A stretch of 32,000 nt of DNA from Geotalea uraniireducens Rf4 (GCF_000016745.1 NC_009483.1:4170001-4202000); one strand, 5' to 3'; positions 1-29,782 are shown, numbered from the stretch's first letter. Numbers and translations: made by a program. Notes: generated by a model not told the origin, from the letters alone.

Positions 1-357
1 GACGAGGGTTGGCGCAAGAATGGTCATGATCCGGGAGAGGACCCTGGCATCAGCCACGGCGTCCCCCCCCTCCAGGCCATGATCCCAGAACCGTATCCCC
101 CGGTCAGCCCCCATGGAGAAGGCAAGCCGCAAGGTGTCGTCAAGACGGGCGGGACCGACTGCAAGAACGGTCACCGTGGCGCCGACTCTGTCTTTAAGGC
201 AGAGCGCCTCTTCCAGGGCCGCAAGATCGGCCGGGTTCGGTACGCGCCTTAAGCCCCGGTCGCTGATGCCAGCGCCCCGCGTGATGACGCGGGCCGGGGG
301 GCGAGGATCACTGCTCTCCCGAAGGAGGACGAGTATGTTGAGTTTTTTCTGTGGCAT
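1..357 (-). CDS. etfB: Electron transfer flavoprotein beta subunit (EtfB/FixA-like). N-terminal 119 codons only; the 3' end runs off the window.
   Basis: Not in the ORF track because it is open to the window edge. Manual reverse translation from ATG at 357 gives MPQKKLNILVLLRESSDPRPPARVITRGAGISDRGLRRVPNPADLAALEEALCLKDRVGATVTVLAVGPARLDDTLRLAFSMGADRGIRFWD. This matches the usual EtfB N-terminal pattern (NP.D..ALEEAL.LK ... V.V...GP ... A.AMGADR). Confidence 0.8.
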   Translation of the reverse strand, partial: MPQKKLNILVLLRESSDPRPPARVITRGAGISDRGLRRVPNPADLAALEEALCLKDRVGATVTVLAVGPARLDDTLRLAFSMGADRGIRFWDHGLEGGDAVADARVLSRIMTILAPTLV

Positions 358-379
358 GGGTAACTCCTGAAATTAATTT

Positions 380-436
380 TGAATTATGAATGTTGAATTT
401 TGAATTAAATTCAAAATTAAGAGTTCAAAATTCAAA
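380..436. repeat. Heptamer tandem array (TGAATTN x4) abutting an inverted array (AATTCAA-like x4). The core is an 11-bp dyad, GAATTTTGAAT(T)/AATTCAAAATT.
   Basis: Read directly: tgaatta tgaatgt tgaattt tgaatta | aattcaa aattaag agttcaa aattcaa. It lies in the 86-nt gap between the fixX stop (444) and the etfB start (357). Confidence 0.8.
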
Positions 437-443
437 ATTGCCT

Positions 444-722
444 TTACGTCATTCGGTACGCGACGCCGAATCCTCCCCGCGGGTAGCGCCAGCGGGTGAA
501 GGCGTTCTTGTGGCAGACCACATAGCAGGTGCCGCATTCCAGGCAGCCGTCATGGACGAAGGTCATTATTTGCTCCTCCTCCGACCAGGTGTAGCAACGG
601 GCGGGACAGGAGTTGGTGCAGCCGCGATTGTCGCAGCCGACGCAGACCGCAGTATCGAGAACGATATGGGGTTCCCGGTCGATGGTGAAACTGGTGAAGT
701 CGAATATTTCGTCTATGTTCAC
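444..722 (-). CDS. fixX: FixX-type ferredoxin-like protein (partner of ETF-quinone oxidoreductase)
   Basis: The 92-aa ORF carries Cys clusters CVGCDNRGCTNSCPARC and CLECGTCYVVC. It has the size and motif layout of FixX. The GTG start overlaps the fixC stop (GTGA). Confidence 0.85.
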   Translation of the reverse strand: MNIDEIFDFTSFTIDREPHIVLDTAVCVGCDNRGCTNSCPARCYTWSEEEQIMTFVHDGCLECGTCYVVCHKNAFTRWRYPRGGFGVAYRMT

Positions 723-2017
723 AATGCCCTCCAGGCGGTCAGGGCGTCGGAGATGGCGTTCTTCAGGCCGACCCTCTCCTTCACCTCCCGCAGGATGAGT
801 TTGGGGATGCTCATCTTTGGGGTGCCGTCGATGCGGTAGATGTGTTCCATCATGCTGCAGACCAGTTCCGGGTACTCATTGTAGATCCGCTCGATGTGGA
901 GCATCTTGGGAGCGTTTCTGAACCCCTTCAGGTCCTTCATTACCCAGCTCAGGTCGAGCCGTTCCTTGTAGCGTTTGAGCGTTTTCAGGGAAAAGTCCTG
1001 CTGCTGATGCGCCTCGATGACGGTCTTTCCCGCCAGGATGCCGGAGTGGGAGGCCAGGTTGATCCCCTCCAGGTTGACGCCGGTGGCATTACAGAGCGCA
1101 GCGGCGTCGCCGGCGACCAGAATGCCGTTGCCGGCCAGTTCCGGAATCATGTTGTAGCCACCTTCGGGGATGACGTGTGCCGAATATTCCTGCAACCGTC
1201 CCCCCCGCACCAGCTTGGCCACCTGCGGTTGCTCCATGAACTCGTTGAGCAGGTCGTAGGGGGTCTTGCCACTGGTGCGCAGACTGGCCAGGTGAAACAC
1301 CAGGCCGATCGAAAGCGAATCGTAGTTGGTGTAGAGGAAACCGCCACCGCGAACACCGCCGGTGCAGCCGACGAACTCATTGGCAAAGCCCTGGTCCCGA
1401 ACCAGCCCAAAGCGATCGTCGATCATCTCTCGCGGCATGTCGATCAGCGCCTTGACACCCACAGCCATCTGATCGGCATTGAACTTGGGACGGCGCAATC
1501 CGGCCTTCTGGGCCGTGAACGACAGTACACCGTCGGCGGCGATCACCACCGGGGCCTTGATCTGTCCCGTGCGTCCCAGGATGGAGACCCCGGCGATCCG
1601 GTCGTTCTTGTAGATCAGGTCGTCCACCGTGGAACGGGTGATCAGGGTGGCGCCGGCTTTGACGGCCTCTTCGGCCAACCAGCGATCAAAGCGGGGGCGG
1701 AAGACGGTATAACCGTTGTAGGGGGCGCGGTCGAAGTTGGTGGTTTCATGCTGTACGTTGAAGCTGGCCTCCGCCGTCATGAAGGTTGTCCCCTTCTTGG
1801 CGATGTGCCGCTCCAGGGGCGCCTTGGTCCAGAAGTCGGGCATGAGCTCTTCGATGGAGGTCATGCGGTGCAGGATGCCGCCGAACATGTTCTTTTCGCC
1901 CGGAAATGTGCCGCGCTCAACAAGGGCCACGTCCAGCCCGGCCCGCGCCATGGTCAATGCGGCCGAGGAGCCGGCCGGTCCCGCACCGACTACGATTGCC
2001 TGATACTGTTTACTCAT
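719..2017 (-). CDS. fixC: FixC-type FAD-dependent ETF:quinone oxidoreductase
   Basis: 432 aa. The N-terminal dinucleotide fold is AIVVGAGPAGSSAALTMARAGLDVALVERG, with an internal GDAA motif (LVAGDAAALCN). The ATGA overlap with the etfA stop and the following fixX complete the context. Confidence 0.85.
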   Translation of the reverse strand: MSKQYQAIVVGAGPAGSSAALTMARAGLDVALVERGTFPGEKNMFGGILHRMTSIEELMPDFWTKAPLERHIAKKGTTFMTAEASFNVQHETTNFDRAPYNGYTVFRPRFDRWLAEEAVKAGATLITRSTVDDLIYKNDRIAGVSILGRTGQIKAPVVIAADGVLSFTAQKAGLRRPKFNADQMAVGVKALIDMPREMIDDRFGLVRDQGFANEFVGCTGGVRGGGFLYTNYDSLSIGLVFHLASLRTSGKTPYDLLNEFMEQPQVAKLVRGGRLQEYSAHVIPEGGYNMIPELAGNGILVAGDAAALCNATGVNLEGINLASHSGILAGKTVIEAHQQQDFSLKTLKRYKERLDLSWVMKDLKGFRNAPKMLHIERIYNEYPELVCSMMEHIYRIDGTPKMSIPKLILREVKERVGLKNAISDALTAWRAL

Positions 2018-3018
2018 GGCGCACCTCCGACGCTCGATTTAACCCGATCCAGGAGGCGCGGCAGCACCTCCTTCAGATCGGCCACGAACCCCTCGTCGGA
2101 GTTGGTGAAAATGGGAGCCTTGGCATCGCTGTTGACCGCCACGATCCGCTTGGAATCCTTGATCCCTCCCACGTGGTGCATGGAGCCGGAAATGCCGAGT
2201 GCCAGGTAGAGCCGCGGGACCACGGTCCGGCCGGTCTGGCCGACCATCCGCTCGAAGCCGGTCCACCCCAGGTCGTAAACGGGGCGGGTAACGCCATAGG
2301 AGACATTCAACAATTTGCAGAGTTCTTTGAACTGCTCAAAGATGGCCGGATCGCACCCCTTACCGACGCTGAAGATCACTTCCGCCTCGGTCAGATCCAC
2401 GGTCTGCGGATCGGGCGGAATCCGCTCGATGATCGTGCCGGTGGCTCCGGTCGGCAGGGCCGCCGGTTGCCAGGTGACCATTGCGGGCGTGGTTGCGGTC
2501 ACCGATGGCATCAGGACCTGGCTTAAGGAGCGGGTCGGTACGGTGATCACCAGGGGGCGGTTGCCGTCCCAATTCTTGGTCTCCGCGATCCGGCTGCCGA
2601 GGGCCTGGCGGGAGAAACGCACCCCTTCCGGACCACGGCGGCCGCTGACCACCTCGGTCATGATGGCGGCATCCAGCGCCGCCGCCACCACCGGCGCCAG
2701 GGTGGCACCCAGGTCGTTATGGGGAAGCACCAGGAGGTTGGCCGACTGCTCGGCCACGAGCTGCGCCAGTGCTTTGCCGAGCAGAACCGGCGCGTCGAGC
2801 AGGGACTCGCACCCGGCCATCCGGGTGATGGCCGGAGTACCATAGGTGCCGAATTGGGCTAGAGCCTCTCCCTCCGGGAGAACGGGAGTGACCGCCCCCC
2901 AGCTGCCGTCGATGAAGCCGGCCAGCCTGGCACCGTAGGAGAGGAGCCCCCGTCCGGTCTCACCGAGTTCGCCATCGGGGAGATCGGCAAAAACGAGGAT
3001 CTTAGCGGTGAAGGACAT
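2014..3018 (-). CDS. etfA: Electron transfer flavoprotein alpha subunit (EtfA/FixB-like)
   Basis: 334 aa. The C-terminal FAD-binding signature is LYLALGISGSMHHVGGIKDSKRIVAVNSDAKAPIF (compare GISGAIQH.AG...S..IVAIN.D..APIF). The start overlaps the upstream stop (ATGA). Confidence 0.88.
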   Translation of the reverse strand: MSFTAKILVFADLPDGELGETGRGLLSYGARLAGFIDGSWGAVTPVLPEGEALAQFGTYGTPAITRMAGCESLLDAPVLLGKALAQLVAEQSANLLVLPHNDLGATLAPVVAAALDAAIMTEVVSGRRGPEGVRFSRQALGSRIAETKNWDGNRPLVITVPTRSLSQVLMPSVTATTPAMVTWQPAALPTGATGTIIERIPPDPQTVDLTEAEVIFSVGKGCDPAIFEQFKELCKLLNVSYGVTRPVYDLGWTGFERMVGQTGRTVVPRLYLALGISGSMHHVGGIKDSKRIVAVNSDAKAPIFTNSDEGFVADLKEVLPRLLDRVKSSVGGAP

Positions 3019-4979
3019 CAGATCTCCCTCCCGATCTTGTGCCCTTCCCAGATGGCCATGTCCACCTTGCGGGGAGCAACGCAGTCGCCAATCCGATACA
3101 ACTCCGGCACCTTCCCTTTCAGGCTCATGTACAGGTCTTCCTCCACCTGCTGTCCCATGACCAGAACGATGGAGTCATAGGGACCCCAGTCGAACCAAAC
3201 GTTGGAGTAGACATTGAACCCCTTGACGGTCTTGGCACCTGCTTCACCGCCGACTTCCATCACGGCGATGTCGGGAGTAAAGGTGACCCCCTTCTGCAGC
3301 AGCCGCTGGCGTGACGAGTAGAGGTCCTGGGTCGGTCCCAGCTCTGCGCAGATGAAGAGGCTGGAGGTGATCATGTCGATCTTTTTCCCCTGGTTGGCCA
3401 GGAACTCGGCGGTCGCCGTGGCGCGCTGGTGTCCGTCGTAGTCGATCAGACAGACGTTCTGTCCCAGTTCGGCCTCACCGTTCAGCACCTGCAGGACATT
3501 GAAGATTGCCGGACCGTCGGCGCCACCCACCGGGTGCTTCTTGGGGATGCTGCCGGTGGCCACAATCACCACGTCGGGCTTCTCGGCCAGGAGCTGTTCG
3601 GTGGTCGCCTCAGCGCCAAGCTTGACGGTCACGCCGGCTTTGTCCACCTGACTCTTCTCGTTGCGGATGATGACGCCGAACTCGTCGCGGCCGGTCCCCT
3701 TCATGGCGGTCACCACCTGCCCACCCAGGCCCTCGTTCCGATCGATGAGGGTGACCTTGTGGCCGCGGCGGCCGGCCATCTTGGCGGCCCACATGCCGGC
3801 CGGGCCACCGCCGACGATGGTCACATTTTTCTTCACGCTGGCCTTTTCCAGGGTACCTTCACCCCACTCCTTTTCCCGGCCGACAGCCGGGTTCTGGACG
3901 CAGCCGAGCGTCTTGTTCATGCCGATCCGGCCGATGCACCCCTGGTTGCAGGCGATGCAGTAGCGGATGTCTTCCAGCCGACCTTCCTGCGCCTTCTTCG
4001 GGAGGAACGGGTCGCAGATGAGTCCCCGGCACATGCCGATCATGTCGGCCTGGCCGTTGGCCAGCACCTTCTCGGCCATGACCGGGTCGTTGATCCGGCC
4101 GGTGCAGAAGACCGGCAGCTTGATCCGCTCCCGGATGCCGGCAGCCAGCGGGATGGTGTAGCCGAGCGGGGTGTGCATGGAGCCTTCCACCAGGTAGAGG
4201 TTGTAGAAGGTGGCAATGGAGAGGTCCATGAAGTCGATAAGTCCCGAGGCCTCGAAGCGGGCGCAAATTTCCTGCACCTGGGCCAGGTCCAGGCCGCCTG
4301 GAATCATCTCGTCGGCGCACATCCTGATGCCGAGGGTGAAGTCGTTCCCCACCGCCTTGCGGACCGCAGCGATGAACTTGAGCGGTGCCCGCATCCGGTT
4401 CTCCAGGCTCCCGCCGTACTCGTCGTTGCGGAAGTTGGTGAGCGGCGACAAGAACTGGCGAGCCAGACTGGAATGGCCGAACTGCAACTCGATCCCGTCG
4501 AATCCACCTTCACGGACGTGAATGGCACTCTTGGCAAAATAGCGGGCCACTTCCTCGATATCCTCCGGTTCCATTGCCTTTGGCGTCTCCCGGAACAGGA
4601 CATCCGGAATCGGCGACGGTGCCCAGACCGGCAACCGGGAGATGCTGCCGTCACCCTGCTGGCCGTTGTGGTTCAACTGGGCGAAGATCTTGGCGTCATA
4701 CTGGTGCACGTAGTCGGTGATCTTCTTGAAGCCGGGAATCACCTCTGCATGGTAGACATCGATCAGCTTCTCGTAGGCCATGTCGGTCGGATGGACCGTC
4801 AACTCCTCGGTGATAATGAGACCGGCCCCCCCCTTGGCCCTCTCGCCCCAGTAGTACATCTGCCGTTCGCTGGGAAGATTGCCTATCGCCAGGTTGGTCA
4901 GGTGCGGCTGGAAGGAAATGCGGTTCTTCACCTCGGTCGTACCCAGCTTGAGGGGTGAAAACAGATTCGGGAACATCAT
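3018..4979 (-). CDS. Fe-S flavoprotein of the 2,4-dienoyl-CoA reductase / trimethylamine dehydrogenase / NADH:flavin oxidoreductase family (OYE-like FMN barrel + 4Fe-4S + ADP-binding domain)
   Basis: 653 aa. The OYE-like N-terminus is LFSPLKLGTTEVKNRISFQPH. The Cys motif is YCIACNQGCIGRIGMNKTLGCVQNP. The second Rossmann motif is VTIVGGGPAGMWAAKMAGRRGHKVTLIDR. An AAGGAG RBS is present, and the gene starts 24 nt after the mftC stop. Confidence 0.8.
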   Translation of the reverse strand: MMFPNLFSPLKLGTTEVKNRISFQPHLTNLAIGNLPSERQMYYWGERAKGGAGLIITEELTVHPTDMAYEKLIDVYHAEVIPGFKKITDYVHQYDAKIFAQLNHNGQQGDGSISRLPVWAPSPIPDVLFRETPKAMEPEDIEEVARYFAKSAIHVREGGFDGIELQFGHSSLARQFLSPLTNFRNDEYGGSLENRMRAPLKFIAAVRKAVGNDFTLGIRMCADEMIPGGLDLAQVQEICARFEASGLIDFMDLSIATFYNLYLVEGSMHTPLGYTIPLAAGIRERIKLPVFCTGRINDPVMAEKVLANGQADMIGMCRGLICDPFLPKKAQEGRLEDIRYCIACNQGCIGRIGMNKTLGCVQNPAVGREKEWGEGTLEKASVKKNVTIVGGGPAGMWAAKMAGRRGHKVTLIDRNEGLGGQVVTAMKGTGRDEFGVIIRNEKSQVDKAGVTVKLGAEATTEQLLAEKPDVVIVATGSIPKKHPVGGADGPAIFNVLQVLNGEAELGQNVCLIDYDGHQRATATAEFLANQGKKIDMITSSLFICAELGPTQDLYSSRQRLLQKGVTFTPDIAVMEVGGEAGAKTVKGFNVYSNVWFDWGPYDSIVLVMGQQVEEDLYMSLKGKVPELYRIGDCVAPRKVDMAIWEGHKIGREI

Positions 4980-5003
4980 GATTAGTGGCTCCTTGAAGAT
5001 TTA

Positions 5004-6047
5004 TCAGGCGGCCTGCGCCGCTTTATTCGCGTCGGCAATGGAGGTCACGCAGCGCTCCAGGCACTCCGGGTCTCCGCCGTTGATGTCGTTTTTCAGGTGC
5101 CAGGCAACGGCCGGACAGCCGCCGTGGCACTGGTCGAAGCGGTTGCACTCCTCGCAGGAGTGGATCCGCAGGGAACGGAACGAGTCGTATATTTCCGAGC
5201 TGTCCCAGATCTCCTGGAAGCTCTGCTCCCGGAGCGAACCGGCCTTGAACCGGTCAGTCTGAAGAAAGGCACAGGGGTACATGTTGCCAGTGGGACCAAC
5301 ACAGCAGGTCAGCTTGGCCGCACCGCAGAGGTTCAAGCCCAGCCCCTGCCGCTCCTGTGAGGTCAGGGAGAAGAAGCTGTCGCCGGTCCGAACATCGCCG
5401 CTCTTGGCCAGCCAGTCGGAGAATGCGAGCAGCTGGGCCGGTGTCGGCCGGAGTTCTTCCCAGTTGTCCGCCCCCCGCCCGGACGGACGGAAGCGGCTCA
5501 CCCGCAGCGACACGCCGAGGGAGTGTGCCATCTCGTACATGGCCGGGATCTGGCTGGCGTTCTGGGTAGTGAGAACAGTATTGATGCTGGTCGGGATCGA
5601 GGTGGCGGCCAGAAGTTTGATCGCCTCGATGGCCTTGTGGTAAACACCTTTGCCGCGGATGGCGTCGCAGGTTTCCGCTGTGGCACCATCCATGCTGACC
5701 TGGATGGCAACCAGCCGGGTCGTGGCCAGACGGGCGACCCGCTCGGCATTGAGCAGGGTCCCGTTGGTGGAGATGCAGGTCATGATGCCCCGGCCATGAC
5801 AGGCGACCAGGATCTCTTCAAAATCGGGACGGAGAAACGGTTCGCCGCCGCCGAAATTGATCTGGAAGACTCCGGCCTGGTGGACTTGCTCCACCAGGTC
5901 GAGGGCTTCGGCCGTGGAGAGCTCGCCAGCGGCGGGCTCTCCGGAAGACGAAAGACAGTGGGTGCAGCGGAGGTTGCAGGCCAACGACACTTCCCAGGTC
6001 AAGTTCACCGGGGAACGAAGCCCCAGTTCGACATATCTATTGCTCAC
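5004..6047 (-). CDS. mftC: Mycofactocin radical SAM maturase MftC (radical SAM + SPASM domain)
   Basis: 347 aa. The CxxxCxxC motif is SLACNLRCTHC. The SPASM Cys motifs are CGAAKLTCCVGPTGNMYPC and CEECNRFDQCHGGCPA...DPEC. The GTG start overlaps the mftB stop by 11 nt. It lies directly downstream of MftA/MftB-type ORFs. Confidence 0.85.
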   Translation of the reverse strand: MSNRYVELGLRSPVNLTWEVSLACNLRCTHCLSSSGEPAAGELSTAEALDLVEQVHQAGVFQINFGGGEPFLRPDFEEILVACHGRGIMTCISTNGTLLNAERVARLATTRLVAIQVSMDGATAETCDAIRGKGVYHKAIEAIKLLAATSIPTSINTVLTTQNASQIPAMYEMAHSLGVSLRVSRFRPSGRGADNWEELRPTPAQLLAFSDWLAKSGDVRTGDSFFSLTSQERQGLGLNLCGAAKLTCCVGPTGNMYPCAFLQTDRFKAGSLREQSFQEIWDSSEIYDSFRSLRIHSCEECNRFDQCHGGCPAVAWHLKNDINGGDPECLERCVTSIADANKAAQAA

Positions 6048-6291
6048 GGAGAAACCCCTTTTCTAGAAGTTGGGTAACGAATTTCTGTAATGCCCGCTTC
6101 TGGTTGTCGGTCAGTCCCTCGGGGAGTTCATCCCTGTTGCGGACGGCCCCGTAGAAGTCTGCTGGAAGCAGCTTGCCGGTCTCGGCAAAGAGAAGGCGCG
6201 GCCCCCGTGAATCATAAAAAAGGAGGCCAAACCCTTCCTGCCGCACGCGACAAGCGGGGTGAAGTCGTATGCCTGCGCCTGCCGCTGCCAT
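6037..6291 (-). CDS. mftB: Mycofactocin precursor chaperone MftB (PqqD-family RRE protein)
   Basis: The track ORF 6037..6366 is trimmed to the internal ATG at 6291, which lies one base after the mftA TAA. The product is MAAAGAGIRLHPACRVRQEGFGLLFYDSRGPRLLFAETGKLL. This fits the MftB/PqqD pattern (L.P.v..R.E.FG.L.Y......L.F). Confidence 0.8.
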   Translation of the reverse strand: MAAAGAGIRLHPACRVRQEGFGLLFYDSRGPRLLFAETGKLLPADFYGAVRNRDELPEGLTDNQKRALQKFVTQLLEKGFLREQ

Positions 6292-6292
6292 G

Positions 6293-6400
6293 TTAGTAAA
6301 CCCCGCAGATGCCGTCGATTGCGAGCTCTTCAACCTGGATCTCTTCCAGAATCCGTGGCTCCTCATTACATGTTTCGTTTGTCTGTTTTTCAGTTTCCAT
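6293..6400 (-). CDS. mftA: Mycofactocin precursor peptide MftA (35 aa), absent from the supplied ORF track
   Basis: Manual reverse translation from ATG 6400 to TAA 6293 gives METEKQTNETCNEEPRILEEIQVEELAIDGICGVY. The C-terminal IDG.CGVY is the hallmark of MftA. AAGGAG lies 7 nt upstream of the ATG. Confidence 0.85.
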   Translation of the reverse strand: METEKQTNETCNEEPRILEEIQVEELAIDGICGVY

Positions 6401-6952: not shown

Positions 6953-8212
6953 TCATCCGAAGTACTTCCTGATGCAGGCCCCCAGCTTCCCCCGCAACAG
7001 TCCCTCATCCTCGCGGCAGAGCTCTTCGTAAAAGGACGCGGCATGTTCCAGAAAAAGATCCGCAATGGCCGGATCGAAGTGGGTTCCCCTTGATTCCCGG
7101 ATAATCCCTGTCGAAACGTCGAAGCTGAAAGGTTTTTTGTAGGGACGCCTGGAGGTAAGGGCATCAAACACATCAGCTACGGCAAATATGCGTGCGTTGA
7201 GCGGAATGGCTTCCGCCGTCAGCCCCCCCAGGTAACCGCTACCGTCAAATTTCTCATGATGGCAGCGAACCACATCAACCGCATCCTTCAGCCAGTCATA
7301 GCTACAGACAATGTCCTCGCCGTGCCTCACGTGGGTCTTCATTATCTCGAATTCCTCATCGGTCAACTTTCCCGACTTGAGGAGGATCGAATCCGTGATG
7401 GCGATCTTTCCCACATCATGCAGGAAGGCCCCCTTGATCAGCCCCTGCATGGCAGTGTTCGAGAGCCCTAACTTCTCCCCGAGGCGTACCGAGTAGATCG
7501 TCACCCGGTAGTTGTGGATATTGGTGTCGCTGTCTCGTTTGGCGATGGCACTTCCCAGCACCTCCAACATACCGATATTAGCCTGCGCCAGAATGTGCGA
7601 GTAATCGATGAGTTTGCGGTTGAGCCGGATTATGAGCGGATACAGCGATAAGCTTGTCACGAAAATTACCAGCACAAGCAAGATGAGAGACCAGAGGGTT
7701 TGGCGTTTTATCTGCGTTATGATCTCTTCGGGCGCATGATAAATCCCTTCCATGTAACCGAGTTTGGTTCCCGTGCGGCTATTAATCGGGACAAATACCC
7801 TCAGGTAGGTCTCATTGCCCACCATCATCTTCTGGCGGCGCACTCCCCCCTTCCGGGCAAAGTCGGAAGTATGCTTGGGAAGCCTGGTTTCCACCGCTTT
7901 GGCAGAAGGTTTTACCACCTCGGCGATTTTGTTCGAGCCGGCGTCATAGAATTCGACCACGATGAAGTTGCCGCGGTCAAATATGTCATGAATCTTACGG
8001 TTGAGAAGCGCAAGGGTCTGCCCGGAAGGGAATCCCAGATAGGTGGTAAACTCGGCGGAGTAGTTCGCGGCCTCGGTTTCGGCCATATTAACAACGTGAT
8101 TGTCCAGTCGGGCATTGCCGAAATAATGGACCAACCCGCCGATCAATACCGACAAGACGAGCCAGACGGCCGCAAGCCTGAGTATCAGCCAGCGGTGGAG
8201 GTTATCAAACAT
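6953..8212 (-). CDS. Membrane-anchored sensor with a C-terminal HD-GYP domain (c-di-GMP phosphodiesterase type)
   Basis: 419 aa with two hydrophobic segments flanking a periplasmic-looking region. The HD motif is FLHDVGKI and the signature is HHEKFDGSGYLGG. Confidence 0.85.
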   Translation of the reverse strand: MFDNLHRWLILRLAAVWLVLSVLIGGLVHYFGNARLDNHVVNMAETEAANYSAEFTTYLGFPSGQTLALLNRKIHDIFDRGNFIVVEFYDAGSNKIAEVVKPSAKAVETRLPKHTSDFARKGGVRRQKMMVGNETYLRVFVPINSRTGTKLGYMEGIYHAPEEIITQIKRQTLWSLILLVLVIFVTSLSLYPLIIRLNRKLIDYSHILAQANIGMLEVLGSAIAKRDSDTNIHNYRVTIYSVRLGEKLGLSNTAMQGLIKGAFLHDVGKIAITDSILLKSGKLTDEEFEIMKTHVRHGEDIVCSYDWLKDAVDVVRCHHEKFDGSGYLGGLTAEAIPLNARIFAVADVFDALTSRRPYKKPFSFDVSTGIIRESRGTHFDPAIADLFLEHAASFYEELCREDEGLLRGKLGACIRKYFG

Positions 8213-8268
8213 TTATGGGTGCCCTCCTCATGTTTCCGGTTGTTTGGAGAAGGCGAGCAGACCGGCCG

Positions 8269-8685
8269 TCAGGATCCGGCCCCCCCGTTCTTCTGGAGAA
8301 ACGCGGCGAACTCCATGTCGATGCGGCTGATATGTTGAATCAACCAGGCGACCAGTGTCTGGTTTGTCTGGATAACAAGCGGCAACGTTGCCCCTTCCCT
8401 CCTGAACTGGGATTCCAGCCGATCAACGTCCTCGGTGAAGCGTGTGTGCTGCGCTTTGTGCGCATCATACCCGGGGTAGTTATGCCTGAGCTGGAGCCGC
8501 TCCTCGGCGGCAAAATGGGATTTGATATAGTCATCGAGAAACAGCAGGAGCCGCAGCACCTCATCCCTCCCTTTACCTTCGTTGCATGCGCTCAGCAGGG
8601 AGTCGAACCGGCTGAACAGCTCTTTGTGCTGATTGTCGATTTCCGCCACCCCGGTCGCCAGATTGTTATTCCATTCGATAGACAT
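8269..8685 (-). CDS. Bacteriohemerythrin-like protein
   Basis: 138 aa starting MSIEWNNNLATGVAEIDNQHKELF. It carries H....E, H...H and H....D spacing (IKSHFAAEE, HKAQH, LIQHISRID) typical of hemerythrin cation-binding domains. Confidence 0.85.
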   Translation of the reverse strand: MSIEWNNNLATGVAEIDNQHKELFSRFDSLLSACNEGKGRDEVLRLLLFLDDYIKSHFAAEERLQLRHNYPGYDAHKAQHTRFTEDVDRLESQFRREGATLPLVIQTNQTLVAWLIQHISRIDMEFAAFLQKNGGAGS

Positions 8686-8708
8686 GTAGTTCCTCCTTGT
8701 TTGGTTTA

Positions 8709-9326
8709 TTAAATTGATTCGTTCCTAGGTACGACATGTTTCCAGTTTACAAGATCGAGCCAGAAATATTCCTTCTGCGACAACTTCAGGAAGGCGGCCA
8801 CCACCTCCGGCATGAACATTCCTCCGGACTGAGCCTCGATCTGCCGGCAGATACGTTTCCTCTGGCCGAGAATGTTTCCCGATGTGCGCAGCAGCACCGC
8901 CACCCTGTCGGCCAGGTGCAGGATATGACTACCGAAAGGCGCCCCGCCACCCTGCCGTGGCCGGCCGTCGCCGTCATCCGACCTGACATGGTGGAAACGG
9001 ATTATGTCTGCCACGCCGGCTAGCGGCTCAAAGCTGCTCAGCAGGCGCCACCCCATCTCGGCATGGCTATGGGGATTGTGAAATTCGAACTGCATGGTTT
9101 GCATCCGCTCCTGACCGGATAGTGCACCGATGTCATGAAGCTTGCCGGCCAGAAGCAGCTCGTTGCGATGCTTCTGCGGCAACCCCAGCTGGGCGGCCAC
9201 GCTGTAGGCCACATAGGCGACCCGTTGGTGGTGATTGAAGAGCGCGGGGTTTACCAGATCAATAACGTCCGACAGACAGGTGATCAGATCGGAAAGCTGG
9301 ATGTGCACTTTCTTTTTAACGAGCAT
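8709..9326 (-). CDS. HD-domain protein with a degenerate HD-GYP signature
   Basis: 205 aa with HHQRVAYVA and KLHDIGAL. It has FHHVRSDDGDGRP where HD-GYP enzymes have HHE.xDGSGYP. Confidence 0.7.
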   Translation of the reverse strand: MLVKKKVHIQLSDLITCLSDVIDLVNPALFNHHQRVAYVAYSVAAQLGLPQKHRNELLLAGKLHDIGALSGQERMQTMQFEFHNPHSHAEMGWRLLSSFEPLAGVADIIRFHHVRSDDGDGRPRQGGGAPFGSHILHLADRVAVLLRTSGNILGQRKRICRQIEAQSGGMFMPEVVAAFLKLSQKEYFWLDLVNWKHVVPRNESI

Positions 9327-12609: not shown

Positions 12610-14016
12610 TCACCAATGGCTGCGCCCGCCAGGGTCGAAACTCGGCTGACTGCCGCCACTTGTACCACGCTTATAGTAGTCCTTGGAATCATAGGTTTCC
12701 GCTGCTTTGGCTTCCTGCAGGCGTTTTTTGTCAATCGGATCTGCCCGGTCGGCATATATGTCTCGCAGCAGGTTTTCGACGACCATGCTCAGATCTTCCA
12801 CCGTTTTTACTACCTCCACCTTGTCGCAATATGCGCCGTAGATATCCATCAGACAGTCGCCGCGACTCCAGGTATCACGATCTTCCGGGGTAAGCCAGAG
12901 CATATAGCGGGCCTTCTCGCGGATCTCGTCCAGCACCCAGTCGTTGGCCTCGTCGTAGTTGTTGCGTGCATCTCCCAGGATGATAAAGGCCGGTCTCCCC
13001 CGCAGGTTTTCCAGATACCTTTTCTTGAAGTTCAGAAACACCTGGCCGAAACTGCTATTTTCATCCAGATCAACGATGTCCCCCTTGTCAATGGTTTCCA
13101 TCAGGTCGTTGACAGGCATGTTTGCCAGCATTTCTGTGATTTCCGCCACTTCCCGATTGAAGATGAAACTGCGGACATCCAGCATCTGATTATGCAGGGT
13201 ATGAAGAAGCAGCAGCATGAAGCGGGAGGCATGGCTCACGGAAAAGCTGACATCACACAGAACCACCAGTCGCGGTTTTTCCCTCCGTTTTCGACGTAAT
13301 GCCACCTGGAACGGCACCATGTCGTGACGGTAATTTTTCTGGATCGTCTTGATGACGTGGAGTTTTCCGCGATTCTGATTATTCTTCATCCGTTTCATAT
13401 CTTTGCGCAGACGCAGCATCATGCGGGAAACCACGTCCTGCATGGCGGCCTGCTCTTCAGGCGTAAAGGTGACGCCCCTGTTGGTGCTGTTGCTCTTGTT
13501 AAGCTCGATCGTGAGCGGATTCTGCGTATAGCGTCGCGACGGCCGGGGCGCTTTCGACTTTCCGCGGTACCCCTTCATCTGGACAACTATTTCAATACCA
13601 TCCGTGTCGTCCGGATCAATCTCTGTCAGGCTTTTCAGCTCGGCTAAATCTTCCGGATTGATATCGCTGTCAAGTTTGAGCAGCGGGCCGTTCTCATCGT
13701 GATCGTCACCCGGCAGTTGGTCGAGGTAGTTGAATTCCCCCTCCATGCCGATGATGGCGGCGTCCATGAGATCGGGAATATCGACGTCCGGGTCGACAGA
13801 CTGGAACCGGCTGAAAAAACGGTTGAAGACCTCATTGAATACCGGAATGTCATTGACATTCTTCACCAGAGTCAGACGCAGGAGCCGCCGGGTCAACCGG
13901 CGCCGTTCCATTCCGGCCAGCGCCAGGGCCTGGACCGCATCCAGGCTTTCACCTGGTGATACGCGGATGCCGCTTTCACGAAGAGCGGCGACGAAACGGG
14001 TGATTATTCGTTCCAT
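12610..14016 (-). CDS. VWA-domain protein of the CoxE type (partner of the MoxR/CoxD ATPase)
   Basis: 468 aa. The N-terminus is RFVAALRESGIRVSPGESLDAVQAL. A MIDAS-like VVLCDVSFSVS is present, along with the C-terminal block AFIILGDARNNY. It starts 2 nt after the MoxR stop. Confidence 0.75.
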   Translation of the reverse strand: MERIITRFVAALRESGIRVSPGESLDAVQALALAGMERRRLTRRLLRLTLVKNVNDIPVFNEVFNRFFSRFQSVDPDVDIPDLMDAAIIGMEGEFNYLDQLPGDDHDENGPLLKLDSDINPEDLAELKSLTEIDPDDTDGIEIVVQMKGYRGKSKAPRPSRRYTQNPLTIELNKSNSTNRGVTFTPEEQAAMQDVVSRMMLRLRKDMKRMKNNQNRGKLHVIKTIQKNYRHDMVPFQVALRRKRREKPRLVVLCDVSFSVSHASRFMLLLLHTLHNQMLDVRSFIFNREVAEITEMLANMPVNDLMETIDKGDIVDLDENSSFGQVFLNFKKRYLENLRGRPAFIILGDARNNYDEANDWVLDEIREKARYMLWLTPEDRDTWSRGDCLMDIYGAYCDKVEVVKTVEDLSMVVENLLRDIYADRADPIDKKRLQEAKAAETYDSKDYYKRGTSGGSQPSFDPGGRSHW

Positions 14017-14018
14017 GG

Positions 14019-15065
14019 CTAGCTCATTTCCTGCACAGCCAGTTCCGTAACCTTCTGCAGGTCTGTCTGGTGTTTGGCAATCACGCCGACGGTATTGGCT
14101 ACCACCTCCGGTGTAAGCTGTGTCGCCTTCATGATCGAAAGCACCTGTGCCCAGTCAAGGGTTTCGGAAACACTGGGGGGCTTGCGCAGATTCAGTTCGC
14201 GGGCCTTACGCAGGAATGCCACCATCTGCTGTGCCAGATCCCCGCAGAGGTCGGGGAATTTTGCCCGGACGATCGCTACTTCCCGCTCCAGCTCCGGATA
14301 ACCGATATAGAGATACAGGCAGCGCCGGCGCAACGCGTCGGAGATCATCCGCGTGCCGTTACTGGTCAGGATCGTCAGCGGCTTTCTCTTGGCCTCGATT
14401 ACCCCCAATTCGGGGATCGAAACCTGAAAGTCGCTCAGACACTCCAGAAGCAGCGCTTCGAATTCATCGTCGGAGCGGTCGATCTCATCGATAAGCAACA
14501 GCGAACGTTTTTCGGACAAGAAACTGCGCAGAATCGGTCGCTGTACCAGGAAATTTTTTGAAAAAAACAGGCTCTCTTCGGCAGAAAGACGCTCGACGGC
14601 TTCCCGCAGGTCAGCTGATACGGAGAGGTAGGTATCTAGCTGGGTACGCAGCAATTGGGTATAGAGCAGCTGTTTGCCGTACTCCCAATCATAGAGTGCC
14701 TTTCCCTCGTCGATCCCTTCGTAGCACTGCAGTCTCACCAGGGGAAAATCCAGGGCAGAGGAGAGGGCCTTGGCCAGGCCGGTCTTCCCTACACCGGGAG
14801 GGCCTTCGATCAGGATCGGCTTCTCCATGTGGATGGCCAGAAAAACGGCGGTGGCGATGGCATCGTCGGCGATGTAGCCACTTGTGTTGAGAAGATCCTT
14901 AACCCCTTGTTCGGTAATCATGATGGCCTCGTAACGTTGAATTTTATATCTGTTAGTACTGTCTTTCATTGCAATCTTTGCGCCGGCAAGAGAACATTGT
15001 TTTAGATATTCAGATGCGGTGCGGACAGCTAATAAAATAAGCCGCTGGCGCCCGGTGAGGGACAT
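14019..15065 (-). CDS. MoxR/CoxD-like AAA+ ATPase. The true start is probably the internal ATG at 14969 or 14921.
   Basis: Walker A is LIEGPPGVGKTGLAKAL and Walker B is LLLIDEIDRSDDE. The size and the VWA partner downstream fit the MoxR family. Confidence 0.85.
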   Translation of the reverse strand: MSLTGRQRLILLAVRTASEYLKQCSLAGAKIAMKDSTNRYKIQRYEAIMITEQGVKDLLNTSGYIADDAIATAVFLAIHMEKPILIEGPPGVGKTGLAKALSSALDFPLVRLQCYEGIDEGKALYDWEYGKQLLYTQLLRTQLDTYLSVSADLREAVERLSAEESLFFSKNFLVQRPILRSFLSEKRSLLLIDEIDRSDDEFEALLLECLSDFQVSIPELGVIEAKRKPLTILTSNGTRMISDALRRRCLYLYIGYPELEREVAIVRAKFPDLCGDLAQQMVAFLRKARELNLRKPPSVSETLDWAQVLSIMKATQLTPEVVANTVGVIAKHQTDLQKVTELAVQEMS

Positions 15066-15124
15066 CTTCCCTCCGGGGCCAGCGGCATAAAATTACAAAG
15101 TCAGGCAACGAATTACTATAATAA

Positions 15125-16330
15125 TTACATGCACTGGTGGAAGATGCCGATCATATCCTGCAGACCGGTATCGGTTGGGTTGCCCTCTGTGCAGATATCG
15201 TTCACGGAGAAACGCGACAGGCCTTCTACGTCTTTTTCAAGCAGACCGAGATCCGTGAAGGTCTTGGTGATGCCCAGATCGGCTTTCAGTTCCAAACAAG
15301 CCTGAATAAATGCTTCGCCAGCTTTCATATCGGACATTCCGCTTACGTCAATACCGGCAGCCTGTGCCATCATCCTGAAGCGCTCCGGGCAGGCCGGCAG
15401 GTTGAACTTCATGACCGGACCGAGACCGATGGCATTGCAGAGACCATGAGGAGCATCGTACATACCGCCCAGAGCATGGGCCATACTGTGAATAAGGCCA
15501 AGACCGGCGCTGTTGAAGCTGTAGGCGGCGGCCATTTCAGCCCATACCATCGCCTCGACAGCTTTGTCGTTGTTTCTGTTCATTGCCGATTGACGCAGGT
15601 TGCCGAAGATCAGCGAAATGGCGCTCAGGCCGGGGCCGTATGCGGAGACAACACCCAGACGGGATGTGATTGCTTCAACGCCGTGAGCAAGGGCATCCAT
15701 GCCGGTGTAACCGGCCAGGTCGCCAGACATACACTGGTGGATCAGCGGGTCATTGACGGATTTGCTGGGTGTACAGTTGGGATCGAACAAGGCCATCTTG
15801 TACTTCTTGTCGGTATGGTTGATGATCGAGAAGCAGGACACTTCCGAACCGGTACCTGAAGTGGTGTTGATGGCAAGCTGGGGAATCGTGTTGGCCTTGG
15901 TTGCCTTGAAAGCACCTTCAAAGCTTCTGACATCCTGACCGTCATGGCTGTGAACGAGTTTGATGGCCTTGCAGCAGTCGTGGGAGCTGCCGCCGCCGAG
16001 GCTGATGATACCGTCGAATTTGCCGGCGGCCAATACCTTGGCGCCTGCCATGACTTCATGATCTTTCGGGTTCGGTGTAACTTTGTCAAACACCTCGGAA
16101 GCAACCCCGGCAGCCTTCAGTACGCCCTGGATTGTCTCGACAATGCCGGTGCCGCGCAGGCCGGTAGTTACGATCAGCGCATTGGTCATACCCAGCGCCT
16201 TGGCGTCATTGCCAACCATCGTATGTGCACCCCAACCGACATTTACGGAAGGATATGCGTGCATCATCTTGATCGGGTATTCCAGCCTTTCGTTCTTCAG
16301 GGTCCGTTTTACATCTTTGTTGTGAGACAT
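15125..16330 (-). CDS. Iron-type (group III) alcohol dehydrogenase, paralog 1 (ADH1)
   Basis: 401 aa with GGGSSHDCCKAI and metal-site histidines (DALAHGVE, LIHSMAHALGGMYDAPHG). An AAGGAGGAAG RBS is present. The N-terminal region (YPIK...GWGAH...LIVTTGLRGTGI) reminds me of the nicotinoprotein methanol/NDMA-dependent subgroup, but this is not verified. Confidence 0.88.
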   Translation of the reverse strand: MSHNKDVKRTLKNERLEYPIKMMHAYPSVNVGWGAHTMVGNDAKALGMTNALIVTTGLRGTGIVETIQGVLKAAGVASEVFDKVTPNPKDHEVMAGAKVLAAGKFDGIISLGGGSSHDCCKAIKLVHSHDGQDVRSFEGAFKATKANTIPQLAINTTSGTGSEVSCFSIINHTDKKYKMALFDPNCTPSKSVNDPLIHQCMSGDLAGYTGMDALAHGVEAITSRLGVVSAYGPGLSAISLIFGNLRQSAMNRNNDKAVEAMVWAEMAAAYSFNSAGLGLIHSMAHALGGMYDAPHGLCNAIGLGPVMKFNLPACPERFRMMAQAAGIDVSGMSDMKAGEAFIQACLELKADLGITKTFTDLGLLEKDVEGLSRFSVNDICTEGNPTDTGLQDMIGIFHQCM

Positions 16331-16797: not shown

Positions 16798-17895
16798 TCA
16801 AGAGTTAAAGGAATTTTGTCGATGTATATTCCGTCTCAGCTCACACCGGTCGTCTGGCGCCAGAAAGTCTCCACGGCTCCCCCACGCCCGCCCCATGCAT
16901 CCACCGGCGCAGGCGAACCTGCCGGGACACTCCCGGCACTCCGCTATTGCGTCCACTCGGCAGAGGCTTGTCTGCAGCAGGGATGACCAGAGAGAAGCTC
17001 CCTCGGCAAAGGCCACGGCGAGATTTTTCCCCCATACCCCTGAAACCGAGTAATCATCGGTATGGCACAGCACACAGGGGTACAGTCTGCCGCCCGGTGT
17101 GATATATGGGTTTTCGACAAACGTGCAGCATTCCGAACGTGGGGCATCTTCCTTGCGCCACTCCAGGGCTGCCACATTGCCGATTTTATCATAGAGATCC
17201 CGGAAGCAATGGTCGGTATCGTAGCGGCGCAGTAATCGCCGATACTGATCCAGACCGGCAGGAACGACCAGAGATTCTTCTTCTGCCCGCCCGCAAAGGA
17301 CAAGGGAGCCGGTGACTACGGAACCGACACCCAGCTCGGCTGCAAGCTCGAGAAGAGCAGGAATCTCATCCAGATTGTGGCGCATCTCCGTAAAGAACAG
17401 CGTAATATGCCGCGCCAACCCTCCCCGGACGAGCAGCCGCACCCCTGCCAGCGCCCCAGCAAAGGCCCCTTCCCCTCTCACGAGGTCATGGGTCGGCGCC
17501 GCAGCCCCATCAAGGCTGACCTGAACAGATAGCCGCGGAAACTCCAGTTCGCGCAGCACAGATACTGCATCGTCATCGAACAACATGCCGTTGGTCTGAA
17601 TTGAGACGTCGCATAACCCGATTGAGCGGCCGAACTGCATGAGTTTCAACCAGGCGGGATGGCAGAGCGGCTCCCCGCCGGTGAAGCGAATCCCCGCGCC
17701 GCCAAGCGCCACGAACTCCTCCATCAGCCGGCGCAGCGTCCGTTCCGGCACATGAGCAGCAGCAGAGGACCCACCCGCTTCGACCCAGCAATGCCGGCAG
17801 GTGAGGTTACAGGCGCCGGTTATGGCGAGCGTCAACGTTTTAGGGGGACGTACTCCCGCGCGTGATAGGATTTTCACAGCTTCAGATGGCAACAT
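16798..17895 (-). CDS. Radical SAM/SPASM-domain protein with no assigned substrate
   Basis: 365 aa. The rSAM motif is GACNLTCRHC. The SPASM motifs are CCTFVENPYITPGGRLYPC, CRECPGRFACAGGC and DDRC. Confidence 0.85.
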   Translation of the reverse strand: MLPSEAVKILSRAGVRPPKTLTLAITGACNLTCRHCWVEAGGSSAAAHVPERTLRRLMEEFVALGGAGIRFTGGEPLCHPAWLKLMQFGRSIGLCDVSIQTNGMLFDDDAVSVLRELEFPRLSVQVSLDGAAAPTHDLVRGEGAFAGALAGVRLLVRGGLARHITLFFTEMRHNLDEIPALLELAAELGVGSVVTGSLVLCGRAEEESLVVPAGLDQYRRLLRRYDTDHCFRDLYDKIGNVAALEWRKEDAPRSECCTFVENPYITPGGRLYPCVLCHTDDYSVSGVWGKNLAVAFAEGASLWSSLLQTSLCRVDAIAECRECPGRFACAGGCMGRAWGSRGDFLAPDDRCELRRNIHRQNSFNS

Positions 17896-20005: not shown

Positions 20006-20057
20006 GGTATCACCTCTTGCAGGGGGGGGATTTACTACGTCCTGCAATGCCTTGCGC

Positions 20058-22627: not shown

Positions 22628-22628
22628 C

Positions 22629-25891: not shown

Positions 25892-25959
25892 GCCGGCCCT
25901 GAGACGGGTTGAGCAACGCCTTTAACGGCAAACTCTCAGTAAAGAAAGGAAGTCAGACA

Positions 25960-26232
25960 ATGCCTAAATATGTCATCGAACGTGAACTTCCGGGAGCGGG
26001 ACAATTAACCGCTGATACGCTGCAGGCCATTTCCCAGAAATCATGCGGCGTGCTCAAGGGACTTGGCCCACAGATTCAGTGGGTACAGAGCTACGTCACC
26101 GATAATAAGATTTACTGCATCTACATAGCGCCTAATGCAGAGATCGTGCTGGAGCACGCCAAACAGGGAGGCTTCCCCGCCAACAGCGTGGCCGAGGTGA
26201 GAACCATTATCGATCCAACCACTGCCGAGTAG
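25960..26232 (+). CDS. DUF4242-family small protein
   Basis: Trimmed to ATG 25960 (AAGGAAG RBS). The product is MPKYVIERELPGAGQLTADTLQAISQKSCGVLKGLGPQIQWVQSYVTDNKIYCIYIAPN...GGFPAN...IIDPTTAE. This matches my memory of DUF4242 conserved blocks. Confidence 0.7.
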   Translation: MPKYVIERELPGAGQLTADTLQAISQKSCGVLKGLGPQIQWVQSYVTDNKIYCIYIAPNAEIVLEHAKQGGFPANSVAEVRTIIDPTTAE

Positions 26233-26304
26233 CATCAAAGAAACCATTCGACATAATCTGGTCGAATTAACGCAGAAAAATTTTGCTATAATAAGGAGAT
26301 AACA

Positions 26305-26835: not shown

Positions 26836-26877
26836 GCATAGGCAGAAACCACAAACCAACGCACATTGGAGGTATGC

Positions 26878-28218: not shown

Positions 28219-28257
28219 CCCGCAGCCCAACAATGGCCACAGACGAGGGAGAATGAG

Positions 28258-29761: not shown

Positions 29762-29782
29762 GTTATGGTGTTGAACCCATGT

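Follow-up and report, generated by a model that had tools for sequence, protein, structure and literature searches.

An OYE-type flavoenzyme encoded between mycofactocin and electron transfer flavoprotein genes in Geotalea uraniireducens is a candidate for the MftD and MftG steps

This analysis concerns OYE_2, a flavoprotein of the mycofactocin system encoded in a 32,000-nucleotide stretch of the Geotalea uraniireducens Rf4 genome (GCF_000016745.1 NC_009483.1:4170001-4202000; hereafter the window, from whose first letter all coordinates are counted). Translation and the Pfam and NCBIfam scans place an ATG-to-TGA open reading frame (ORF) of 653 aa at positions 3018-4979 of the minus strand; the plus-strand reading of the same interval is full of stops and was rejected. 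The ORF had been proposed, with no strand given, in an earlier note on this DNA, and it is real, its product matching, at 100% identity, the RefSeq protein of G. uraniireducens called 'mycofactocin system FadH/OYE family oxidoreductase 2'. The NCBIfam hidden Markov model TIGR03997 matches it over profile positions 1-645 of 645 with 1016.7 bits (cutoff 793.15), and the next families, BaiCD, OYE_1 and bilirubin reductase, reach 330-391 bits, far under their own cutoffs. OYE_2 is a full-length, high-scoring member of this curated family, and at 1016.7 bits a chance match is not an issue. TIGR03997 has been curated since the original bioinformatic description of mycofactocin, which used the G. uraniireducens genome (Haft 2011, PMC3023750). 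The earlier note had missed this membership; the link of mycofactocin with the electron transfer flavoprotein (ETF) is also curated (NF038209, TIGR04503).

The three-module architecture and the superfamily assigned to the protein in that note proved to be right. Pfam detects Oxidored_FMN (PF00724, residues 6-334, E=2.8e-63) and Pyr_redox_2 (PF07992, residues 385-646), and the C-x2-C-x3-C-x11-C motif formed by C341, C344, C348 and C360 aligns with the 4Fe-4S ligands of trimethylamine dehydrogenase (TMADH), 2,4-dienoyl-CoA reductase (DCR) and 2-naphthoyl-CoA reductase (NCR), the counterparts in TMADH being C345/348/351/364. The dinucleotide motif GGGPAG at residues 390-395 corresponds to the ADP/FAD site, and the second nucleotide site is degenerate. 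In a Foldseek comparison with PDB, the full-length AlphaFold model of OYE_2, built from an 80-sequence alignment of three clades (pLDDT 85.4, pTM 0.85), matches NCR, the DCR of E. coli, histamine dehydrogenase (HADH), TMADH and the 6-hydroxypseudooxynicotine (6-HPON) amine oxidase HisD, all with TM scores of 0.89-0.91, a range in which amine dehydrogenases and CoA reductases are not separable. The Pfam and NCBIfam scans of OYE_2 gave no PF01070 or TIGR03966 (MftD) match and no GMC/MftG match (TIGR03970, TIGR04542, NF038210). In the OYE_2 orthologues of several Geobacterales, Dehalococcoidia and Acidobacteriota (loci L007, L010, L011, L015, L018, L022 and L028), the second cluster ligand, which falls within residues 341-348 of the window protein, is Asp and not Cys ('RYCVADNQGC' vs 'RYCIACNQGC'), which points to a 4Fe-4S cluster with an Asp ligand, or with some other alteration, in some of the family members.

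OYE_2 belongs to a minus-strand operon with the gene order mftA-mftB-mftC-OYE_2-etfA-fixC-fixX-etfB-mftF. The mycofactocin precursor peptide gene mftA (6293-6400) encodes 35 aa ending in ...EELAIDGICGVY (IDGICGVY) and scores 47.4 bits with NF040489 and 43.7 bits with TIGR03969. Its stop is followed 1 nt later by the ATG of the peptide chaperone gene mftB (6037-6291; 84 aa from this ATG; TIGR03967, 67 bits, cutoff 33), and the radical SAM/SPASM maturase gene mftC (5004-6047; 347 aa; TIGR03962, 353 bits, cutoff 265; Pfam Radical_SAM and SPASM) ends 24 nt upstream of OYE_2. On the other side lie the genes for the ETF alpha subunit (etfA, 2014-3018; 334 aa; PF00766 and PF01012; PDB relatives 5OW0_A and 7KOE_B), for an ETF:quinone oxidoreductase-type flavoprotein (fixC, 719-2017; 432 aa; 354-358 bits with FixC models and 278 bits with 7KOE_C, the FixC of Thermotoga maritima EtfABCX) and for a ferredoxin-like protein (fixX, 444-722; 92 aa; NF011993, 56 bits, below cutoff, with Fer4 families detected on contig L001). 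The ETF beta subunit gene etfB enters the window with its N-terminal 119 codons (1-357); the full protein of 296 aa was obtained from L001 and L002, two contigs with an identical OYE_2 protein that were used to extend the analysis beyond the window edge, and the protein's best PDB match is the ETF beta subunit 1O94_C from the complex of TMADH with ETF. Just outside the window, etfB is followed by mftF (477 aa; TIGR03965, 382 bits, cutoff 280) and, on the extension contigs, by a small ORF, a FIST/NosP-like sensor and an aldehyde:ferredoxin oxidoreductase.

The location of the ETF genes next door, as stated in the earlier note, is correct, since the etfA start overlaps the OYE_2 stop by 1 nt. 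The stop/start overlaps at etfA/fixC and fixC/fixX are 4 nt each, and the three overlaps together therefore indicate translational coupling from OYE_2 through etfA and fixC to fixX. Neither the 32-kb window nor the extension contigs contain MftD (PF01070/TIGR03966), MftE (PF02633/TIGR03964) or MftG (GMC). Inside this GC-rich and tightly packed operon, the fixX-etfB spacer (about 358-443, minus strand) has 86 nt of very AT-rich sequence with repeated and palindromic units AATTTTGAA / TTCAAAATT; a role of this spacer in regulation or processing upstream of etfB-mftF is conceivable.

To describe the genomic context of the family, we used a family-alignment scan with one genome per species, which returned 80 loci, about 50 of them mycofactocin-linked, and mapped the loci by tblastn with verified seed proteins. 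The G. uraniireducens arrangement represents type Ia, A-B-C-OYE_2-EtfA-FixC-FixX-EtfB-F, found in Geobacterales, Anaeromyxobacter, some Actinomycetes and metagenome-assembled genomes of Dehalococcoidia and Acidobacteriota, with none of MftD, MftE and MftG. These three are likewise missing in type Ib of Desulfobacterales and relatives (A-B-C-paralogue-OYE_2-EtfA-[insert]-EtfB-F), where FixCX is replaced by a multihaem cytochrome c and an HdrD/TfrB-like Fer4+CCG protein encoded between etfA and etfB. At L024 (12902-15578), for example, this insert encodes a cytochrome c and a 638-aa protein with a Fer4 dicluster and two CCG domains, and equivalent inserts of about 3 kb are present in L019-L026, L032, L036, L040, L041 and L070. 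The non-orthologous replacement of FixCX implies that the conserved element is 'OYE to ETF to membrane acceptor'. Type Ic, A-(B)-C-OYE_1-(SDR)-OYE_2-EtfA-FixC-FixX-EtfB-E-F (SDR, short-chain dehydrogenase/reductase), occurs in Acidimicrobiia, Streptomyces, Frankiales, Mycobacteriaceae, Chloroflexi and Competibacter and contains, of the three enzymes, MftE only. Finally, type II of Prescottella equi and relatives has the order C-MftD-OYE_1-SDR-OYE_2...MftE-MftF-MftG, with all three enzymes and no ETF; in its representative L060 the scores are 740 bits for MftD, 969 for OYE_2, 346 for MftE and 652 for MftG.

In all four types, representative OYE_2 proteins score above the cutoff of TIGR03997. 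Passing orthologues adjoin mftA/C/F and EtfAB in Geobacterales, Desulfobacterales, Dehalococcoidia, Acidobacteriota, Competibacter, Chloroflexi and Acidimicrobiia, and the same adjacency is seen in Streptomyces, Saccharopolyspora and Amycolatopsis. Gene calls with precomputed Pfam labels confirmed the type Ic layout in Saccharopolyspora pogona and Amycolatopsis and a type Ia-like layout in a Dehalococcoidia-type contig, and no PF01070 gene was present in these three layouts.

The control, a set of 80 metagenome loci centred on MftC and chosen without regard to OYE, went through the same mapping. Most of them are canonical, C-D-E-F(-G); in two (L145 and L162) the order is C-OYE_1-OYE_2-E-F, so that the OYE pair occupies the mftD slot between mftC and mftE. 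The pooled set comprised 68 clusters with at least 6 kb downstream of mftC, viewed over about 10 kb on each side. MftD alone was found in 26 of the 68 and OYE alone in 39, whereas two clusters had both and one had neither; thus 65/68 carry MftD or OYE but not both. MftG and ETF never occurred together (0/68), with MftG only in 19 clusters, ETF only in 36 and neither in 13. The complementarity of MftD with OYE and of MftG with ETF is therefore strong and extends across many phyla, despite the biased samples from which the counts were pooled. Two metagenome loci, L143 and L154, represent rare C-E-F mycofactocin clusters in which no MftD and no OYE gene is within reach; their mftD may lie apart from the cluster, as it does in the rearranged L104 and L156, unless some third solution is in use.

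The chemistry of MftD is regarded as aerobic (PMC8406134), and MftG is a mycofactocinol dehydrogenase that feeds respiration, missing in 77 of 311 mftC genomes, for which no alternative was named (PMC11778925). The same study gives -255 mV for the PMFT/PMFTH2 couple and -74 mV for menaquinone, so that electron flow from mycofactocinol to menaquinone is downhill. Its supplement lists, with MftC and without MftG, G. uraniireducens, G. pickeringii, Desulfofarcimen and Desulfonema as well as four Saccharopolyspora spp., four Amycolatopsis spp. and Prauserella marina, and lists Prescottella equi with MftG; our locus types are in agreement with this genome-level listing. A BGCFlow analysis reported 17 mycofactocin-like clusters of Saccharopolyspora that lack mftD and have a TIGR03997 gene 'with unknown function' (PMC11162802). 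Ellerhorst et al. detected MMFT-2, MMFT-2H2 and MMFT-3 in S. erythraea, with the same masses as in M. smegmatis, and mycofactocins in A. methanolica (PMC9679996). Both species produce MMFT on ethanol, and synthetic PMFTH2 and AHDP have been prepared (PMC9679996). Authentic keto- and hydroxy-mycofactocins are thus products of genera with no MftD in their clusters and no MftG in their genomes, and therefore another enzyme must do both steps. What these clusters contain instead is the OYE/ETF module. Our literature searches found no paper that gives TIGR03997 or TIGR03996 a function or discusses the ETF link.

In a neighbour-joining tree (distance-based, without bootstrap), the mycofactocin-linked OYE proteins, namely OYE_2, actinobacterial OYE_1 and the Desulfobacterales paralogue, form one superclade apart from both DCR/NCR and TMADH/HADH, and hence no orthology to a characterised acyl-CoA reductase clade, of the kind raised in the earlier note, was observed. 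OYE_2 is 32-34% identical to DCR and NCR and 27-30% identical to the TMADH/HADH/HisD group. The ene-reductase proton donor (Tyr166 in DCR, also Tyr in NCR and in many non-mycofactocin homologues) corresponds to Ser171 in OYE_2, the 'AHGY' sequence being kept in many of these non-mycofactocin homologues, and DCR His252 is not kept and aligns with Phe258/Tyr259. The classical OYE set (His164/His167/Tyr169 in YqjM), with its His/His(Asn) pair and Tyr, is replaced by Gln166/His169/Ser171, of which only the second His is kept. In the third domain, the NADPH motif 'IIGCGGIG' of DCR corresponds to 'LIDYDGHQ' in OYE_2, 'ILNADTYF' in TMADH and 'VYDDDHYY' in HADH, and the longer stretch around this second site reads VCLIDYDGHQRA in OYE_2 vs VVILNADTYFMA in TMADH and VVVYDDDHYYLG in HADH. 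The resulting picture is of an enzyme that would be unable to use NAD(P)H and would exchange electrons with a protein partner through its Fe-S cluster.

The equivalent of TMADH His172 is His169 of OYE_2, which is invariant in all clusters without MftD. It belongs to a polar signature invariant in the members from Geobacterales, Dehalococcoidia and Actinomycetes (His26, Glu58-Glu59, Gln101/Asn103/His104/Asn105, Gln166, His169 and Ser170-Ser171), and the picture is of a putative substrate that is polar and would be neither a CoA thioester nor a small cationic amine. The substitution H169Q is observed only where MftD and/or MftG is present (L060, L083 and L062), the L060 and L083 copies being without ETF; the three sequences are monophyletic, so this counts as one evolutionary event and as weak evidence. 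In OYE_1 (compared at L043-L062, L083, L145 and L162) and in the Desulfobacterales paralogue (L020-L041), His169 is missing and Arg295 is changed to Ser or Gln. The query aligns at least twice within each of the representative proteins P0122 (1334 aa) and P0129 (1456 aa). This is a hint of tandem OYE modules fused into one chain, and perhaps of a heterodimer of OYE_1 and OYE_2 with one catalytically degenerate subunit.

From the domain content, family membership, operon structure, conserved synteny and complementary distribution described above, we infer the substrate of OYE_2, the direction of electron flow and a possible dual role. Most likely, OYE_2 is an ETF-linked dehydrogenase of the TMADH/DCR three-domain superfamily whose substrate would be the pyrrolidinone head group of mycofactocin; that it acts on this head group and passes the electrons to ETF is a proposal we consider somewhat better than evenly balanced. 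A hydride would be transferred from C3 of the head group to FMN in the TIM barrel, and the electrons, with no NAD(P)H site available, would exit singly through the 4Fe-4S cluster to EtfAB, encoded in the same translationally coupled operon. EtfAB would then deliver them to the FixC/FixX ETF:quinone oxidoreductase (in Desulfobacterales, to the HdrD-like protein and cytochrome c) and so to the menaquinone pool. It can be argued from the non-orthologous replacement of this last component that the conserved function is the transfer of OYE_2 electrons to the membrane.

Two substrates would fit this scheme, differing only in whether the carbon that gives up the hydride bears -NH2 or -OH. With -OH at C3 (mycofactocinol), the reaction would regenerate the cofactor after its reduction by the iron-containing alcohol dehydrogenase (Fe-ADH), which is the job of MftG in mycobacteria, where an mftG mutant accumulates mycofactocinol. 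With -NH2 at C3, that is, with the aminopyrrolidinone intermediate AHDP, an imine would be formed and hydrolysed to premycofactocin, the job of the O2-using MftD. Since the route to the quinone pool is a dedicated one, a catalytic role with high flux such as mycofactocinol re-oxidation makes most sense, and we rate recycling as equally likely to be right or wrong. An added MftD-equivalent role is plausible because MftD and OYE nearly exclude each other, the OYE pair can fill the mftD slot, and TMADH, HADH and HisD set a precedent for amine oxidation; we put this role slightly below the even mark. C-N bonds are oxidised by three of the five solved three-domain relatives (TMADH, HADH and the 6-HPON amine oxidase HisD), and TMADH gives its electrons to ETF (1O94 complex). 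That both roles are held by the same protein is possible, and we regard it as distinctly on the unlikely side.

A number of observations weigh against this interpretation. By PDB sequence score, the nearest solved structures are the CoA-thioester reductases NCR and DCR (339 and 284 bits), which outscore TMADH (236 bits) and HADH (225 bits), and OYE barrels are best known for the reduction of C=C bonds. The cysteine that carries the 6-S-cysteinyl-FMN (TMADH Cys30, HADH Cys35) is Leu27 in OYE_2, invariantly within the family, and the aromatic bowl of TMADH (Tyr60/Trp264/Trp355) corresponds to Glu59, approximately Leu261, where the alignment is uncertain, and Ile352; residues 256-268, the active-site loop or lid, are of low confidence in the AlphaFold model. 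The models mft_etfA (NF038209) and mft_etfB (TIGR04503) are the best matches of EtfA and EtfB, with scores of 134 bits (cutoff 240) and 74 bits (cutoff 200), whereas the S. pogona proteins pass both cutoffs with 458 and 376 bits. The pooled counts combine two deliberately biased samples with kinship ignored, the MftC-selected sample alone gives a Fisher p of 0.02, and the absence of mftD refers to about 10 kb around each cluster. MftE is missing in 28 of the 36 OYE+ETF loci, those of the Geobacter type included, so that free AHDP would need another source in Geobacter-type clusters. Lastly, TIGR03997 coexists with MftD, MftE and MftG in the Prescottella-type loci L060 and L083; it is therefore not simply an MftD replacement and has another or an additional role there.

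The earlier note had treated replacement of MftD and mycofactocin:ETF oxidoreductase activity as alternatives; we consider them compatible. They gain from the near-exclusive distribution of MftD and OYE, the mftD slot, the lack of any cluster with both MftG and ETF and the Saccharopolyspora data, with ETF linkage kept in 36 loci; the Prescottella-type clusters speak against a simple replacement. Weakened is the rationale drawn from strict anaerobiosis: mftD-free clusters with OYE and ETF are frequent among the aerobes Streptomyces, Amycolatopsis and Saccharopolyspora, and as the module is common in obligately aerobic actinomycetes, oxygen independence cannot be its sole driver. On the whole that interpretation is partly supported; the hypothesis gains real support and remains unproven.

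Different explanations of the same locus have to be compared with this one. OYE_2 could be a client enzyme whose substrate is some unrelated small molecule (an amine, an enoate or an aldehyde-derived compound) with ETF or mycofactocin as redox partner, the MftD- and MftG-type functions being provided by unlinked genes. Client dehydrogenases typically gather at mycofactocin clusters (Haft 2011), the superfamily is catalytically very diverse, as its next-best matches BaiCD, bilirubin reductase, NCR, DCR, TMADH and HisD illustrate, and L060 and L083 contain, in addition to MftD, MftE and MftG, a mycofactocin-coupled SDR wedged between OYE_1 and OYE_2. For a client, so close a match to the absence of MftD and MftG (65/68; 0/68) would be surprising, as would its place in the mftD slot of L145 and L162; moreover, OYE_2 is a single-copy gene fixed between mftC and etfA across many phyla, whereas client SDRs and alcohol dehydrogenases vary in number and position, and some enzyme must perform the MftD step in S. 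erythraea, whose mycofactocin masses are those of M. smegmatis. We regard the client explanation as rather unlikely. An ordinary FadH, i.e. an NADPH-dependent 2,4-dienoyl-CoA reductase or an NADH:flavin oxidoreductase placed incidentally near mft genes, is suggested by the labels '2,4-dienoyl-CoA reductase (NADPH2)' or 'NADH:flavin oxidoreductase' that some databases give to family members and by the rank of DCR as second-best PDB sequence match. This identity is scarcely credible and was rejected: the equivalents of Tyr166 and His252 are replaced, the NADPH motif is degenerate, the superclade stands apart from DCR/NCR, the TIGR03997 score is far above that of any other family, and synteny with mft genes is kept across at least eight phyla.

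The electrons could also run the opposite way, from quinol or ferredoxin through FixCX and ETF to OYE_2, which would reduce mycofactocinone to mycofactocinol for nicotinoprotein clients. OYE-family enzymes are mostly reductases, FixABCX-type complexes (7KOE relatives) are reversible and join the quinone, NADH and ferredoxin pools, and an aldehyde:ferredoxin oxidoreductase is encoded just downstream on L001 and L002; yet menaquinol at -74 mV cannot reduce mycofactocin at -255 mV without energy input, the complementarity with the oxidising MftG fits the oxidative direction, and the Fe-ADH/MadBC module with its ErcA-type regulon (see below) suggests alcohol oxidation and hence a reduced cofactor in need of a sink (PMC4358379). 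This makes the reductive direction decidedly improbable. Even more doubtful is an electron-bifurcating or confurcating OYE_2-EtfAB-FixCX complex in which mycofactocinol (about -255 mV) would replace NADH as the mid-potential donor, one electron passing downhill to menaquinone (-74 mV) via FixCX and the other uphill to ferredoxin. The closest solved FixC relative is that of T. maritima EtfABCX, a bifurcating complex, the energetics are roughly balanced, and the aldehyde:ferredoxin oxidoreductase is again to be noted just downstream; among their PDB neighbours, EtfA and EtfB score about equally to bifurcating and to non-bifurcating ETFs.

Elsewhere in the window, also on the minus strand, are genes for an Fe-ADH related to NDMA-methanol dehydrogenase (15125-16330), a MadB-like AAA ATPase (14019-15065) and a MadC-like VWA protein (12610-14016), all three below the curated cutoffs. 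The same trio adjoins mft/OYE clusters in L003, L012-14, L016, L029, L031, L035, L037 and L075, and the interval 12610-16330 is a probable mycofactocin-dependent alcohol dehydrogenase module that would supply reduced cofactor. Further on, 19028-23792 (minus) encodes MoaA, a sigma-54 response regulator, a PAS histidine kinase and an ErcA-like Fe-ADH regulator; the Fe-ADH module together with the ErcA-like regulator and the sigma-54 two-component system has the appearance of a regulon for alcohol oxidation. Methanol use has been tied to a related cluster in Geobacter (PMC4358379). The listed moaA ORF (19028-20311) overlaps the regulator, and as its MoaA match begins at residue 105, the true start is probably near 20000.

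The G+C content is 60-64% in the region of the mft-OYE-ETF operon (1-6000) and 50-56% over the flanking 24 kb (6001-30000). A step of this kind would agree with the module having been acquired as a whole by horizontal transfer, and such an origin would fit the sporadic distribution that Haft (2011) noted for mycofactocin. Directly upstream of mftA, at 6953-9326 (minus), two HD-GYP-type (HD_5) proteins are encoded around a hemerythrin-domain protein (8269-8685, minus), and these genes could form a sensory unit for O2 or NO, or one linked to c-di-GMP, beside the cofactor operon. A second radical SAM/SPASM protein of 365 aa (16798-17895, minus) has sub-threshold matches to ScmF (112 bits), AhbD (103 bits) and MftC (95 bits), with no precursor peptide identified near it; a radical SAM/SPASM gene also follows mftF in L024. 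On the plus strand, 28940-30811 encodes an HdrC/QmoC-like Fe-S protein and an HdrB/SdhE-like CCG protein, and near this pair lie several ORFs without a family match (24647-28557) and an AmiS/UreI-like transporter (26305-26835).

The biology of mycofactocin has been worked out almost wholly in mycobacteria, where MftD needs O2 to form the keto group and MftG re-oxidises the cofactor. The MftD-less clusters include those of strict anaerobes (Geobacter, Dehalococcoidia, Desulfobacterales) and of industrial actinomycetes (Saccharopolyspora, Amycolatopsis, Streptomyces), and no enzyme has been named for the MftD or the MftG step in organisms that lack them. One conserved module, OYE_2 with or without OYE_1, EtfAB and an ETF:quinone oxidoreductase, is a candidate for both steps. 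If so, it would provide an oxygen-independent route to mycofactocin, add a new class of physiological substrates to the TMADH/DCR superfamily and reveal how Geobacter connects the oxidation of alcohols with metal respiration; a bifurcating complex, if it were real, would let an anaerobe conserve energy from alcohol oxidation via a cofactor derived from a peptide that is made on ribosomes and modified after translation (RiPP). The candidate role of the module, if correct, would also correct the rules for detection of biosynthetic gene clusters that require mftD, a problem already noted (PMC11162802). The gene family was known before, and the exchange of mftD for TIGR03997 had been remarked for one genus, Saccharopolyspora; added here are the cross-phylum complementarity with MftD and MftG and the ETF-to-quinone interpretation, neither of which was found in the searchable literature.

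Among curated families, OYE_2 shows no difference from TIGR03997, whose other members have the same neighbourhood of mft genes. TIGR03996 (OYE_1) is a paralogue family: Geobacterales have OYE_2 only, actinobacterial clusters have OYE_1 together with OYE_2, and Desulfobacterales have a separate paralogue. Of the solved amine-oxidising relatives, TMADH, HADH and HisD (2TMD/1O94, 3K30 and 6L6J) share with OYE_2 the three-domain fold (TM 0.89) and the Fe-S cysteine motif. TMADH and HADH resemble it further in that their third domain lacks a Gly-rich NAD(P)H motif, and TMADH in its His172, kept as His169, and in its acceptor, ETF, which for OYE_2 is encoded in the same operon. They differ in belonging to another clade, in the covalent-FMN cysteine and aromatic bowl that OYE_2 lacks, and in their substrates, which are small free amines and not the proposed cofactor head group. 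DCR FadH (1PS9) and NCR (6QKG) are similar to OYE_2 in fold, Fe-S motif and the first GxGxxG; they form a separate clade and differ in the proton-donor Tyr, His252 and the NADPH motif, and the context of OYE_2 is free of CoA metabolism.

The enzymes with which the module alternates are not homologous to OYE_2. MftD (premycofactocin synthase, TIGR03966, PF01070) is FMN-dependent, as OYE_2 is, but has an alpha-hydroxy-acid oxidase-type barrel and uses O2 (PMC8406134), and MftG (TIGR03970 and relatives) is an FAD-containing GMC enzyme that feeds the respiratory chain (PMC11778925); compared with both, OYE_2 has in addition the 4Fe-4S cluster and the proposed use of ETF, and it would share with them the proposed oxidation at C3. 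The OYE_2 operon resembles the FixABCX/EtfABCX systems in having FixC, FixX and EtfAB, here tightly coupled by the gene order. The OYE_2 module differs from these systems in the unusual gene order etfA-fixC-fixX-etfB and in its input, which is apparently an FMN/Fe-S dehydrogenase and not NADH or an acyl-CoA dehydrogenase. The HdrD/TfrB-like protein and cytochrome c that stand at the FixCX position in Desulfobacterales resemble, in turn, the EtfAB:menaquinone Fe-S oxidoreductases of the type found in syntrophs.

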